39,389 bases of DNA from the NCBI GenBank assembly GCA_964500555.1, contig CAZCOZ010000001.1, positions 13,708-53,096 of the forward strand. Direction: 5' to 3'. This DNA comes from an uncultured Thiotrichaceae bacterium. Lineage in GTDB: Bacteria > Pseudomonadota > Gammaproteobacteria > SZUA-229. The first letter of the stretch is position 1; every line of letters begins with the position of its first letter. Shown one piece after another: positions 891 to 10,870 of this stretch. Below the pieces are notes generated by a model. That model worked only from the letters and a program-made list of their open reading frames with translations. It ran no database searches and was not told where the DNA came from. The position numbers and the translations under genes are program-made.

Positions 891-1328
891 CTAATAACCA
901 TCGAATTTTGTCTGCGGACGATTTTCCAGCTCCTTTTGTTCAGCCTGTTCCTTTTGTAAATGTTCAAGTTGTTGCCTGTTTTCAACAACCTTATTAATTA
1001 TCTTACTTTTACTGCGTTTATGTAACCATTCCTGTTGACTGGCTTCGCATTTGTTCTGTTCATTTTCGACAAATTGTCGCTGCTGCGCAATCGCTTCATC
1101 AAGGCGGTTTATAAAAAGTCGATATTCCTGCGCTTGAATAGCCGACAACCCTGATTTTCCAACAGATTCAAAACCTTTTATATATTCATCACGGTAGTTC
1201 ATCAATTCATCCAGCTGTTTTTTTTTCTGTTCCCTTTCTTGTAAAGCTTCGCCATGCAAACGTCCCGCATTATGTTCCTGCTGTTTTCTAATATTTGCGA
1301 TTGGTTGTAATTTCGTTGATTGTTTCAC
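891..1328 (-). CDS. fliJ: Flagellar export chaperone/stalk protein FliJ (GTG start)
   Basis: 145-aa coiled-coil protein. The segment QLDELMNYRDEYIKGF..GLSAIQAQEYRLFINRLDEAIAQQRQFV..QQEWLHKRSKSK..ENRQ follows the pattern of enterobacterial FliJ (..LIDYQNEYRNNL..NYQQFIQTLEKAITQHRQQL..SWREKKQRLQ..ERQ). It sits between fliI and fliK. Confidence 0.8.
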   Translation of the reverse strand: MKQSTKLQPIANIRKQQEHNAGRLHGEALQEREQKKKQLDELMNYRDEYIKGFESVGKSGLSAIQAQEYRLFINRLDEAIAQQRQFVENEQNKCEASQQEWLHKRSKSKIINKVVENRQQLEHLQKEQAEQKELENRPQTKFDGY

Positions 1329-1393
1329 TTTTTAATACCCTAAACTAATATCCAAAGATCAATACTTTTAATTCATACTTGTTCTGCAAGACT

Positions 1394-1849
1394 TCAGCCT
1401 TTTGCAGATCTCATCGCTTTATGCCCAAAAATATCCTTTCCACTGCGTTCATCGGAATCTGTGAGTTCATTTTTTTGTTCTAATGCTTTTTGTTTTATTT
1501 CTTCTTTTATGTCTTTAAATACTTTATTTTTTCCCAACCAAATTTGGTTTGATTTTTCATAATCAGCATGACTTTTATCTACTTTATATGACAGTGTTTC
1601 TACTGTTAAATCGATATGATCCATTAATAACTGAAACTCCCTTACATGTGCCGGTGGCAATCCTGATTTTTTTGCTCTCGCTATTCCTTTTATACATTCA
1701 GTTTTATGTTGCAATAAAACGTCCATTTGTGCCTGTTGCCCTTTCGCCACGCGTTCATAATAATCCATCTCATTATGCGCTTTACTTTCTTCACGTCGTG
1801 CCTGTGAAAAACCATCACCAACTGTTTCTGCATTATCCATTGCCTGCAT
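1394..1849 (-). CDS. Second, divergent FliJ-like coiled-coil protein immediately after fliI
   Basis: 151-aa ORF overlapping the fliI stop by 17 nt (8 nt if the start is Met4). It has the same size, charge pattern and landmark spacing as FliJ (QMDVLLQHKTECIKGI..SGL..VREFQLLMDHIDLTVETL..QIWLGKNKVFKDIKE). The CDS call is solid. The FliJ-paralogue assignment rests on pattern only. Confidence 0.55.
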   Translation of the reverse strand: MQAMDNAETVGDGFSQARREESKAHNEMDYYERVAKGQQAQMDVLLQHKTECIKGIARAKKSGLPPAHVREFQLLMDHIDLTVETLSYKVDKSHADYEKSNQIWLGKNKVFKDIKEEIKQKALEQKNELTDSDERSGKDIFGHKAMRSAKG

Positions 1850-3263
1850 TGCCTCTCATTGCGCCATTGTTGACTAAATCGATCAATTCATTAACGCTCT
1901 GCCCATAAGCAAACGCTTCACTTGTATCCTGTTTTAAAAAAGTTTTTAGCGCTTCATTAAAGTCGATAGCTTCATCTATCATCGGGTCACTACCATACTG
2001 GTAAGCACCGACACTAATAAGATCATGATTTTTTTGGTAAGTTGAATACAATTGTTTAAAACGTTTTGCTGCCTGTTTATGTTCATCCGTAACAACATCG
2101 TTCATCACACGACTGACAGATGCTTCGATATCGATTGCGGGGAAATGCCCTTGTTCTGCAATTGATCGAGATAACATAATATGCCCATCTAATACTGCTC
2201 GAGCAGAGTCGACAATGGGGTCATTGGTGTCATCGCCTTCAGCCAGCACGGTATAAAAAGCGGTTATTGATCCGCCTTTTTCTCCATTATTACCCGCCCT
2301 TTCCACTAAATGTGGCAGCTTTGCAAAAACCGAAGGTGGATAACCTTTGGTTGCAGGTGGTTCACCAATCGCAAGTGCAATTTCACGCTGAGCCTGCGCA
2401 AAGCGCGTTAGTGAATCCATTAGTAATAAAACATTTAAGCCTTTATCACGAAAATACTCCGCAATAGTCGTCGCTAACAATGCACCGTGCATTCGCATTA
2501 ACGGTGGACTGTCTGCTGGACTGGCAACAACAACTGAGCGTTCCAAACCCTGTTCGCCTAAAATTTTATCAACAAAATCTTTTACCTCACGACCACGTTC
2601 ACCAATTAAACCAACAACAATAACATCGGCCTCTGTATAACGCGTCATCATTCCTAACAACACACTTTTGCCAACACCACTACCGGCAAACAAGCCTAAG
2701 CGTTGACCTCGTCCGACTGTCAATAAAGCGTTAATCGCTACCACGCCAACATCAAGTGGTTCATTAATTGCCCAACGTGCTAATGGATTTCCTGGTTTAC
2801 CGGCTAAAGGTAAAAATTCATCGCATTCAATTTCGCCTTTACCATCGAGTGGATTGCCAGCAGCATCAATAACTCTGCCAAGCAATGCATCACCAACGCG
2901 TGCTTTATACATACCCTTGCCGGGAATAACACTGGCATCAGGCATCAATCCTTTTATATCTCCAGTCGGCATTAAATAGAGTCGTTCACCAGCAAACCCG
3001 ACAACTTCTGCTTCGATGTTTCCTTCCGATGAGGACACCAGACAACGCGCGCCAACAGGTGCATGACAACCTACTGTTTCGAGTGTTAACCCAACCATAC
3101 GTTTAAGCTTGCCCTCAACAACTAACGGCGTATTTTTTTTGGCTCGAAGCTGATACTTCTGTAACAGTTCACACCATATAGAACTTCGACTGTAATTATC
3201 AGCCGACGGCTTAATAATAGATTCAGTAACAGATTCAGTCATTACCTTAGAACCTGTCATCAT
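1833..3263 (-). CDS. fliI: Flagellum-specific ATP synthase FliI
   Basis: 476 aa. Walker A is FAGSGVGKSVLLGMM and Walker B is VLLLMDSLTRFAQAQREI. F1/T3SS ATPase signature PPSVF..LPHLVERAG..GSITAFYTVL. Lies between fliH and fliJ. Confidence 0.97.
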   Translation of the reverse strand: MMTGSKVMTESVTESIIKPSADNYSRSSIWCELLQKYQLRAKKNTPLVVEGKLKRMVGLTLETVGCHAPVGARCLVSSSEGNIEAEVVGFAGERLYLMPTGDIKGLMPDASVIPGKGMYKARVGDALLGRVIDAAGNPLDGKGEIECDEFLPLAGKPGNPLARWAINEPLDVGVVAINALLTVGRGQRLGLFAGSGVGKSVLLGMMTRYTEADVIVVGLIGERGREVKDFVDKILGEQGLERSVVVASPADSPPLMRMHGALLATTIAEYFRDKGLNVLLLMDSLTRFAQAQREIALAIGEPPATKGYPPSVFAKLPHLVERAGNNGEKGGSITAFYTVLAEGDDTNDPIVDSARAVLDGHIMLSRSIAEQGHFPAIDIEASVSRVMNDVVTDEHKQAAKRFKQLYSTYQKNHDLISVGAYQYGSDPMIDEAIDFNEALKTFLKQDTSEAFAYGQSVNELIDLVNNGAMRGNAGNG

Positions 3264-3946
3264 TGTGAATCGTCTACGTTCTGTTCATTCATAAGGTGTT
3301 CATCTATCAGGCGCTCACCACCCATTACTTCGGCAATGATTGCATTCATTCTTTTTTCAACACTTGCATCAATCCGTGATGTGTTGGTTAATACGCGACA
3401 GCCTCCCCTTGTTAACAATGGGTCTTCGATAATTTTCCAATTCAGTTCCGTGCTTGTTGATGTTAGTGTATCTCGAATTAACGTCGCATCATCAGGATGT
3501 AACTCAAGTGTTATTTCAGCAGGCGTTGCCGGTAACAGACTTAATGCTTCTCGAACCACCGCGACAATTTCACTGGGAGAAATTTTTAACTCACGCCTGA
3601 CCATCTGTTTAACCACTGCCATACTCAACTGCGCTAATTCATCAACCACCTGATTATCGACATCCGGTAACGGCATCGCCAAAGCGGCCAGTATGGTAGG
3701 GATATGCTCTAGTTGCTCTCGCATTTCTTTCTGGCCTTTAGCCAGCCCTTCCATATAACCTTTTGCATAACTTTTTTCATACGCTTGCTGACTTATTCGT
3801 GCCTGTTGTTCTCCTGTCAAACCATTCATTGAACTATTTTTATTTTTCGGCGCAAAATCATAACTAGAGTCTGTGGTTAAAACCAGATTAGGTGCGCGCC
3901 AGGGTTTGCAGTCATGATTCGATTCGCAATTTACGATCTTAGACAT
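3260..3946 (-). CDS. fliH: Flagellar assembly protein FliH (FliI regulator)
   Basis: The position between fliG and fliI, the 4-nt overlap with the fliI start, and the C-terminal FliH/YscL-like region (..VVREALSLLP...ELHPDDATLIRD...GGCRVLT..SRIDASVEKR) support the call. The ORF-track start at 3967 is a GTG. I prefer the ATG at 3946, which lies 9 nt after an AGGGAG Shine-Dalgarno. Confidence 0.85.
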   Translation of the reverse strand: MSKIVNCESNHDCKPWRAPNLVLTTDSSYDFAPKNKNSSMNGLTGEQQARISQQAYEKSYAKGYMEGLAKGQKEMREQLEHIPTILAALAMPLPDVDNQVVDELAQLSMAVVKQMVRRELKISPSEIVAVVREALSLLPATPAEITLELHPDDATLIRDTLTSTSTELNWKIIEDPLLTRGGCRVLTNTSRIDASVEKRMNAIIAEVMGGERLIDEHLMNEQNVDDSQ

Positions 3947-4961
3947 ACTCATCATCTCCCTTACCACCTATCGTTATATCACCTGCATCGGCAAGTCGTG
4001 TAGCAACGGTTAATATTTCTATTTGCGCATCTTCTACTTCTTTCAGTTTCACTGGCCCCTTCGCTTCAAGATCTTCACGCATCATGTCAGCAGCACGTGA
4101 AGACATATTGCCAAATATTTTCTCTTTGATTGCATCATCAGCACCTTTCAATGCAATGATGAGTTGGTCAGACTGAACATCTCGTAATAGTGTTTGCATG
4201 CCACGGTCATCAATATCCAGCAGGTTATTAAAGACAAACATTTTACTCAGAATTTCTTCTGCCAACTCTGCATCTTGCTCGGTAATCTCTTCTGTAATGG
4301 TTGTTTCTGCTTCGTTATCCATAAAGTTTAATATGTCCGCAGCCACTTTTACGCCACCCACACCCGAGCTCTTTTCGCCCGTACTACTGGAAAATTGTTT
4401 TTCTAAAATTTGATTGAGTTCGTTTAATGCTTCAGGCGTCACACCATCCAATGTAGCAATACGCATTAACACATCTGAACGCGAAGTTGACGGTAAATGT
4501 TGTAATACTTCTGCCGCATGATCACCATCAAGATATGACAATACAATCGCAACAATCTGTGGGTGCTCATTTTTTATAACGACAGACACGGCAAGTGGAT
4601 CCATCCATTTAAGGGAATCCAGGCCTTTGGCATCGCGGCCTAAAAGAATGCGATCAATAACGCTGCCCGCTTTTTGTTCGCCTAGTGCTTTGGTGATCAT
4701 GTTCCTTATATATTCATCAGGATCATTCCCCACACCAGACTGACCATTTGCTACATCCACAAAAGCACCTATCACATTATCGACCTGCTCACTCGAAACA
4801 TTATTGAGCGACGCCATTATTGTGCCAATTTTCTGCACTTCTTTCGGGTCCATATGCTTAAGCACTTCGGCTGCTTTGTGTTCACCCAGGCTCATCATAA
4901 ATATAGCAGCACGCTCAGCACCCGACACATCTTCCAGGCCAGAATCCATGGCATCACTCAT
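3939..4961 (-). CDS. fliG: Flagellar motor switch protein FliG
   Basis: Hallmarks are ERAAIFMMSLGE, EHPQIVAIVLSYL and MFVFNNLLDIDDRGMQTLLRDV. The ORF-track start at 4970 is a TTG. The ATG at 4961 overlaps the fliF stop by 8 nt (ATGAGTGA), which is typical coupling. Confidence 0.95.
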   Translation of the reverse strand: MSDAMDSGLEDVSGAERAAIFMMSLGEHKAAEVLKHMDPKEVQKIGTIMASLNNVSSEQVDNVIGAFVDVANGQSGVGNDPDEYIRNMITKALGEQKAGSVIDRILLGRDAKGLDSLKWMDPLAVSVVIKNEHPQIVAIVLSYLDGDHAAEVLQHLPSTSRSDVLMRIATLDGVTPEALNELNQILEKQFSSSTGEKSSGVGGVKVAADILNFMDNEAETTITEEITEQDAELAEEILSKMFVFNNLLDIDDRGMQTLLRDVQSDQLIIALKGADDAIKEKIFGNMSSRAADMMREDLEAKGPVKLKEVEDAQIEILTVATRLADAGDITIGGKGDDEYV

Positions 4962-6662: not shown

Positions 6663-6738
6663 AAAATTCAAACTTGGAAAATCCAAACCTGGTAAATCTA
6701 GACTTGTAAAATTTAGACCTGCGAAATTTAAACCTGCA
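6663..6738. repeat. Five tandem 15-bp units derived from the 3' end of fliE, each carrying a stop (or TGG) in the fliE frame
   Basis: Minus-sense reading in the fliE frame: ATG CAG GTT TAA | ATT TCG CAG GTC TAA | ATT TTA CAA GTC TAG | ATT TAC CAG GTT TGG | ATT TTC CAA GTT TGA. The first unit is the real fliE end (..MQV*). Confidence 0.9.
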
Positions 6739-7066
6739 TCTTCATTACTTCTTTGTATGCAGAGAGTAAATTGTTTCTAACTTGCGTCAGTGCCTGAAAG
6801 GAAACACTTGATTTTTGACGAGCCACCATCACTTCACTTAAACTGACAGAAGGATCCCCCATTTCAAATGCTGTCGCTAAACTTCCTGCTGCTTTTTGCG
6901 TCTTATTAACCTGGTTTATCGAATCCTTTAACAATTGAGAAAAATCAGGGCCAGCTACCTTTGTCCCTGCCCCTATTACACCAGGTTCAACAGACATTTT
7001 ATTTTCAGCCAACGATGCCATATTGCGCATTTGCTGAATTACTTGATTAATTTCTACGCTACTCAT
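6728..7066 (-). CDS. fliE: Flagellar hook-basal body complex protein FliE
   Basis: 112 aa. The C-terminal part GDPSVSLSEVMVARQKSSVSFQALTQVRNNLLSAYKEVMKMQV is typical of FliE. RBS AGAGGTGA lies 6 nt before the ATG, and the gene is upstream of fliF. Confidence 0.9.
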   Translation of the reverse strand: MSSVEINQVIQQMRNMASLAENKMSVEPGVIGAGTKVAGPDFSQLLKDSINQVNKTQKAAGSLATAFEMGDPSVSLSEVMVARQKSSVSFQALTQVRNNLLSAYKEVMKMQV

Positions 7067-10555: not shown

Positions 10556-10870
10556 CTAATTACTGTGTTGCATATAAACATCAACCGCACGGCGACCATT
10601 GTTTATTGACGCGACATGCTGACCTGAATCATCTCTAGCATCTATCGCAATCGCTTCAAGCCTTTTGTTAATATCAATAATTTTTCGAATCTTATCATCC
10701 ATTTCTATCACGTCATTACCCTGATGTGAGGTAGAGAATAATTTTTTGAGTAACTCACTACGTTGAACTTCAATTTCCATTACTCGATCCCAGTTACCTA
10801 CTTCTGCATCTTTTAACATTGTTTCACTGCAGCTAATTGCCTCTTTTAATTGTTTATTTTTAGTATCCAT
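10556..10870 (-). CDS. fliT: Flagellar chaperone FliT
   Basis: 104-aa helical protein directly after fliS. The motif AEVGNWDRVMEIEVQRSELLKKLF matches the conserved GDW..v..LE..R..LL core of FliT. Confidence 0.7.
   Translation of the reverse strand: MDTKNKQLKEAISCSETMLKDAEVGNWDRVMEIEVQRSELLKKLFSTSHQGNDVIEMDDKIRKIIDINKRLEAIAIDARDDSGQHVASINNGRRAVDVYMQHSN

Follow-up and report, generated by a model that had tools for sequence, protein, structure and literature searches.

The fliI-fliK interval

The window analysed here, a stretch of 39,389 nt from an uncultured Thiotrichaceae bacterium, carries on its minus strand a run of flagellar genes in the order fliE-F-G-H-I, an open reading frame at 1394-1849, a second at 891-1328, and fliK. 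Upstream of fliI, the genes fliE (6728-7066), fliF and fliG were identified with Pfam, and fliH (3260-3967; PF02108, 116 bits) is the upstream member of the conserved fliHIJ unit. The gene for the flagellar export ATPase, fliI (1833-3263), scores 642 bits against TIGR03496 (FliI_clade1; cut-off 619.1). The initial annotation placed two consecutive reading frames of 151 and 145 aa between fliI and fliK, and both are indeed present there. We refer to the frame proximal to fliI as fliJ' and to the distal one as fliJ.

The proximal frame encodes 151 aa when read from the ATG at 1849 and 148 aa from the ATG at 1840; the latter is more probably the start, and the majority of orthologues begin there. 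It overlaps the fliI stop codon (TAA, 1833-1835), as had been noticed earlier, by 17 nt from the first ATG and by 8 nt from the second. After a 65-nt spacer (1329-1393), with AGGG about 10 nt before the start codon, the distal frame begins with GTG and encodes 145 aa, its N-terminus agreeing with that of its orthologues. A scan of fliI-J'-J for promoters and terminators returned nothing meaningful (counts at or below the shuffled expectation), and no terminator-like sites were seen between the three genes, spacer included. Both J genes have a lower G+C content than their neighbours, as expected for coiled coils rich in Lys, Glu and Gln, and nothing in their base composition points to a foreign source.

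The 5' part of fliK (2-772), which encodes the hook-length control protein, has no Pfam match, and the gene continues beyond the start of the window, where its continuation carries the FliK C-terminal domain (PF02120, Flg_hook; 75.8 bits). About 100 consecutive Ns interrupt the gene immediately outside the window, past base 1 (L096:6608-6707, on contig C1 of G000), and both flanks of this run share an identical Gln-rich sequence (GCACAATCCTCACAACAACCGTTACAACAG...). The Ns appear to mark an assembly gap or a withheld stretch where FliK is repetitive, and any length or frame deduced for FliK is therefore provisional.

The distal ORF is a canonical FliJ. It scores well above the cut-offs of both family profiles (PF02050, 70.0 bits against 28.4; TIGR02473, 75.4 bits against 50.45) and aligns with Salmonella FliJ (PDB 3AJW) at an E-value of 2e-6, collinearly over residues 3-136. 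The resemblance to enteric FliJ that was originally proposed by eye is thus confirmed.

Homology and descent of the proximal gene

Against the same profiles, the proximal ORF falls below every curated cut-off, with 20.7 bits (E 4.9e-4) for PF02050 and 16.1 bits for TIGR02473. It does not match another family either, its remaining Pfam matches being weak and below cut-off. However, BLASTP aligns it with the distal ORF at 30% identity over 100 aa (E 7e-10), and an hhalign comparison of 16 proximal orthologues (alignment A1) with 12 distal orthologues (A2) gave a probability of 98.3% and an E-value of 1.4e-14 over 122 collinear columns. PF02050 is also matched at E<=0.01 by 13 of the 16 proximal orthologues, the best at 2.2e-9, and A21, L39, Y45, G60 and W101 are common to FliJ' and canonical FliJ.

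An AlphaFold2 model of FliJ' (pLDDT 84.4) predicts a two-helix hairpin with helices at residues 2-59 and 63-132, which agrees with an antiparallel coiled-coil hairpin of about 140 residues. In a Foldseek search with this model, the top four matches included 3AJW (TM 0.70/0.77, rmsd 2.9) as well as CT670, a homologue of YscO and the best match by TM-score (0.71). We used only the TM-scores and ranks here, as coiled-coil hairpins are generic and the E-values were consequently not significant. Searching the PDB with the single proximal sequence found nothing, and the proximal family profile gave no significant match (3AJW, E 0.42).

The initial annotation allowed for an unrelated coiled-coil mimic, that is, a protein that is FliJ-like through composition alone. 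Such a protein would account for the scores below the Pfam and NCBIfam cut-offs, the lack of a significant PDB match for the family profile and the non-significant Foldseek E-values. It is nevertheless hardly credible, given that the pairwise and profile-profile alignments are collinear over the full length, that the five residues listed above are shared with FliJ, and that the protein falls inside the family's FliJs in phylogeny (see below). The proximal ORF resembles the distal one far more than chance would allow and is, as judged by these alignments, a true FliJ homologue despite its sub-cut-off profile scores.

In a maximum-likelihood tree of 66 FliJ sequences (about 150 coiled-coil columns), the 22 proximal copies all fall into a single clade (100/99). 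This clade is nested in a larger one (99/94) with the family's own canonical FliJs (genera g32, g21+g27 and g33+g1), leaving out g20, g35 and 17 other gammaproteobacterial FliJs. Inside this proximal clade, the branching order matches the one seen among the distal copies. The proximal branches are several-fold longer than the distal ones, and long branches meet inside the proximal clade, which is a caveat of this tree. Long-branch attraction is still an unlikely source of the nesting, since it would be expected to pull the proximal copies towards the long outgroup branches and not into a short-branched family clade. A tree of FliI recovers the same clade (100/100).

With the 22 proximal copies forming one clade nested among the family's own FliJs, the trees indicate that FliJ' arose in the ancestor of a clade within the family through a single old and local tandem duplication, which was the other origin initially put forward. 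In approximately unbiased (AU) tests, an independent duplication in g32 was rejected (p 0.012); one in g27 was not rejected at 0.05 (p 0.098), and the g27 proximal copies carry the derived L72 and a residue other than A at position 79. As a separate observation, the FliI and FliJ of g20 and g35 (L044, L045, L049) group with other gammaproteobacterial lineages, apart from the remainder of the family. It may be that the flagellar clusters of these two genera had another history, by older divergence or by horizontal replacement.

Like the genome of the window, the relatives compared here are uncultured metagenome-assembled genomes, labelled "Gammaproteobacteria" or "Thiotrichaceae bacterium". The window's genus comprises 34 species genomes, and the order consists of a single family with 97 genomes in 19 genera. 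FliI was found above cut-off in 16 of the 34 species of the genus, and the same 16 have FliJ; flagellation is therefore patchy, with several 98-99% complete genomes lacking both proteins. FliJ' directly follows fliI in 15 of the 16 FliI-bearing species, and these have the distal fliJ wherever the contig allows (the G049 contig stops short of it, and the G042 copy is cut off). The other 18 species, those lacking FliI, yielded no FliJ'. In G021 (98% complete), canonical fliJ lies 12 nt after fliI without FliJ'. This genome sits deep inside the genus in the FliI tree, and its single fliJ is thus a secondary loss.

The order fliI-J'-J occurs in four genera (g1, g27, g32 and g33), whereas g20, g21 and g35 have a single fliJ, which in g21 reflects either a loss or a state older than the duplication. 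The FliJ' frame is intact in all 22 genomes from the four genera and lies between fliI and fliJ in every genome examined, and the canonical fliJ has never been lost where FliJ' is present. Relatives across the four genera therefore keep both genes, and the proximal frame is not pseudogenised among them.

Outside the family, we checked adjacency directly in the DNA of 40 sampled gammaproteobacterial fliJ loci. None had a second FliJ-like ORF. fliJ adjoins fliI in 37 of them but not in the remaining three, and the gap between the two is no more than about 90 nt in the 36 loci with an intact fliI. The fliHIJ order has also been reported to be deeply conserved (bioRxiv 10.1101/2021.01.01.425057). 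A literature search on duplicated, tandem or paralogous fliJ found no description of such an arrangement. One outside locus, L091 (G370:C1:660500-664200, an unrelated gammaproteobacterium), has fliI in three frames (165, 156 and 239 aa) next to a fliJ of 90 aa, which suggests a flagellar export operon in decay or a cluster of sequencing errors.

Selection and the contact surface

We calculated dN/dS only for genome pairs with unsaturated synonymous sites, many pairs being saturated. The ratio is 0.11-0.27 for the proximal gene, 0.07-0.12 for the distal gene and 0.04-0.08 for fliI; in the G075/G077 pair, the three values are 0.27, 0.10 and 0.07. FliJ' evolves 1.5-2.7 times faster than fliJ. By these ratios it is under purifying selection, though constrained less tightly than its neighbours, and it is not a decaying copy.

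The surface of FliJ that projects from the FliI6 ring is well described in Salmonella, where it consists of the conserved residues Q38, L42, Y45, Y49, F72, L76, A79 and H83, with F72 and L76 critical for binding the FlhA linker (PMC9114704). The distal ORF is identical to Salmonella at seven of these eight positions (Q38, L42, Y45, Y49, F72, L76 and A79), while Q replaces H83, a change found in almost every canonical FliJ that was sampled. Among 44 canonical FliJs (20 distal, 9 single and 15 outgroup sequences), Y49 and F72 are invariant and A79 nearly so.

In the proximal copies, by contrast, F72 is replaced by L in 22 of 22, A79 is absent from all 22 (V, E, T, I or S instead), and Y49 is absent (C, S or A) from all 21 that cover the position, G098 being cut there. 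Y45 and L/I76 are kept. The FliJ' of the window has C49, L72, I76 and T79, and so does not carry the set of FlhA-linker-binding residues (Y49, F72, L76 and A79).

The pattern extends to a wider sample. When cluster representatives of 1.84 billion proteins were searched by profile, 126 matched, and together with the earlier proteins these made 133 sequences; assigned by the higher-scoring family profile, 38 were of the proximal type and 95 canonical. C49 and L72 occur in all 36 proximal-type representatives covering those positions, while the canonical representatives have Y49 in 91 of 95 and F72 in 94 of 95. The proximal family does not conserve the canonical N-terminal L7, P9 and A11 or the C-terminal K113, R118, E130, Q131 and E133, and it has invariant positions of its own (R16, E18, G52, E68, L71, L72, E81 and K112). 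Taken together, these alignments indicate a consistently retuned gate-facing surface in FliJ'.

A redundant duplicate drifting towards loss, without a function of its own, might be suspected from the faster evolution of FliJ' and from its clean loss in G021 and possibly g21. This is very improbable in view of the frame being intact in 22 of 22 genomes from four genera and the dN/dS of 0.11-0.27. The replaced positions are also themselves conserved, with C49 in every covering representative and L72 in all.

In the FliJ' sub-clade of the window, residues 45 and 75 are both His, against Tyr45 and Tyr/His75 elsewhere (148-aa numbering). It is pure speculation that Cys49 might form, with His45 and His75, a metal- or redox-sensitive site at the predicted hairpin tip.

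Role of FliJ' and comparison with known systems

FliJ is credited with acting as the central stalk of the FliI ring, as an activator of the FlhA export gate and as an escort of free chaperones, and these separate roles have been hard to dissect by mutation in model organisms. A second FliI, FlhA or FlgN could have served as partner for a second FliJ, but we rejected this because each is single in the genome (90% complete), including just one above-cut-off match for FliI. Elsewhere in the window, a 104-aa ORF after fliS (10556-10870, minus strand) has a weak match to FliT (NF007836, 24 bits against a cut-off of 116 bits). We take it to be a very divergent FliT-like chaperone, and a putative partner of FliJ'.

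We favour, with some reserve, the reading that FliJ' is a duplication-derived, selected accessory partner in the export complex and not a redundant second stalk. Following the duplication, fliJ' would have taken over the slot translationally coupled to fliI, leaving the canonical fliJ second, with what would be its own ribosome-binding site. FliJ' would have kept the antiparallel coiled-coil hairpin of about 150 aa. The canonical FliJ would remain the central stalk of FliI6 and the activator of the FlhA gate, while FliJ', its partner surface retuned, may belong to the same single FliH-FliI export complex as an accessory component derived from FliJ. There it might carry another of the FliJ roles, such as chaperone escort, binding of free FlgN or FliT, or modulation of the contact between FliJ and FlhA.

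This reading follows from the canonical copy keeping every residue for the stalk and gate activation, which makes an accessory partner the most likely position for FliJ'. FliJ' would thus probably serve the export ATPase complex as a FliJ-derived partner with an accessory or regulatory function. Some observations count against this reading. Replacing F72 by L is conservative, and with Y45 and L76 retained FliJ' may still bind the FlhA linker. As G021 and g21 manage on canonical fliJ alone, FliJ' is dispensable in some backgrounds.

The two genes were initially also suggested to encode alternative or heteromeric stalk proteins. In an alternative-isoform version of this idea, each of the two would take the centre of the FliI6 ring, but in separate complexes or at separate points of assembly, such as rod/hook-type as opposed to filament-type export, so that the one machine would exist in two versions. 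The predicted hairpin equals that of FliJ in length and geometry, fliJ' is translationally coupled to fliI, A21, L39, Y45, L/I76 and W101 are retained, and one FliI ring is available to be shared. Set against this, three of the eight conserved tip residues (Y49, F72 and A79) are replaced throughout, and FliJ' has lost the canonical N- and C-terminal motifs, the termini being expected inside the ring by analogy with F1-gamma. FliJ' has also been lost in evolution, and the canonical copy never has where FliJ' is present. The suggestion of two stalks is weakened accordingly: with these residues replaced and the terminal motifs gone, FliJ' is no simple second stalk, and we consider alternating isoforms somewhat unlikely, though deserving of some weight.

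A more speculative form, which we think doubtful, would make FliJ' and FliJ a separation-of-function pair, in which a single FliI6 ring uses two interchangeable rotors or adaptors with different tips, and swapping or competition between them sets the state of the FlhA gate. If true, the pair could switch between export classes or throttle export, and would represent a layer of regulation without a known counterpart among flagellar type III systems.

The locus is also of broader interest. One copy with every canonical contact residue beside a selected copy altered at exactly these positions amounts to a natural dissection of the roles of FliJ, whose several jobs may here be split between two proteins. 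The FliJ' family is small, with about 38 clusters at 50% identity. It also holds a warning for annotation, as the gene that lies directly after fliI and overlaps it need not be the functional orthologue of fliJ.

Salmonella enterica FliJ (3AJW; PF02050, TIGR02473) is an antiparallel two-helix coiled coil of about 150 aa whose gene lies immediately after fliI, and the distal ORF is a plain member of this type. FliJ' resembles it in its fold model, collinear homology, conserved A21, L39, Y45, L/I76 and W101, and gene position directly after fliI. It differs in scoring below both profile cut-offs, in the replacement of Y49, F72 and A79, in the loss of the terminal motifs, and in coexisting with a canonical FliJ in the same operon.

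Another comparison is with the SctO/YscO/InvI/EscO proteins of injectisome type III secretion systems (represented by CT670, PDB 3K29), which like FliJ' are highly divergent FliJ-like hairpins encoded after the ATPase gene. An SctO-type protein, however, serves as the only stalk in a secretion system that is separate and has an ATPase of its own. In the present case there is one ATPase (FliI) and no second type III system, and FliJ' falls within the family's flagellar FliJs.

A third comparison is with FcrX of Sinorhizobium meliloti, a small helical protein of FliJ ancestry that is a diverged orthologue at the fliJ position, tied to ctrA, and acts on CtrA and FtsZ through ClpXP (PMC11929396). 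Since FcrX is derived from FliJ and has no reported motility role (PMC11929396), it sets a precedent for FliJ' being a neofunctionalised regulator outside export that binds a regulator of flagellar expression or the cell cycle. The fast evolution of FliJ' and its lineage-specific invariant residues (R16, E18, G52, E68, E81 and K112) would suit such a role. We find it improbable, however, as the gene sits between fliI and fliJ in every genome examined and was not found in the 18 species of the genus without FliI, and an accessory role within the export complex remains our preferred reading. FliJ' is like FcrX in its FliJ ancestry and its divergence from canonical FliJ, but it is a tandem paralogue beside a retained fliJ, and nothing suggests that it acts on CtrA or FtsZ. 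What FcrX does show is that FliJ-derived proteins are able to adopt quite different roles (PMC11929396).
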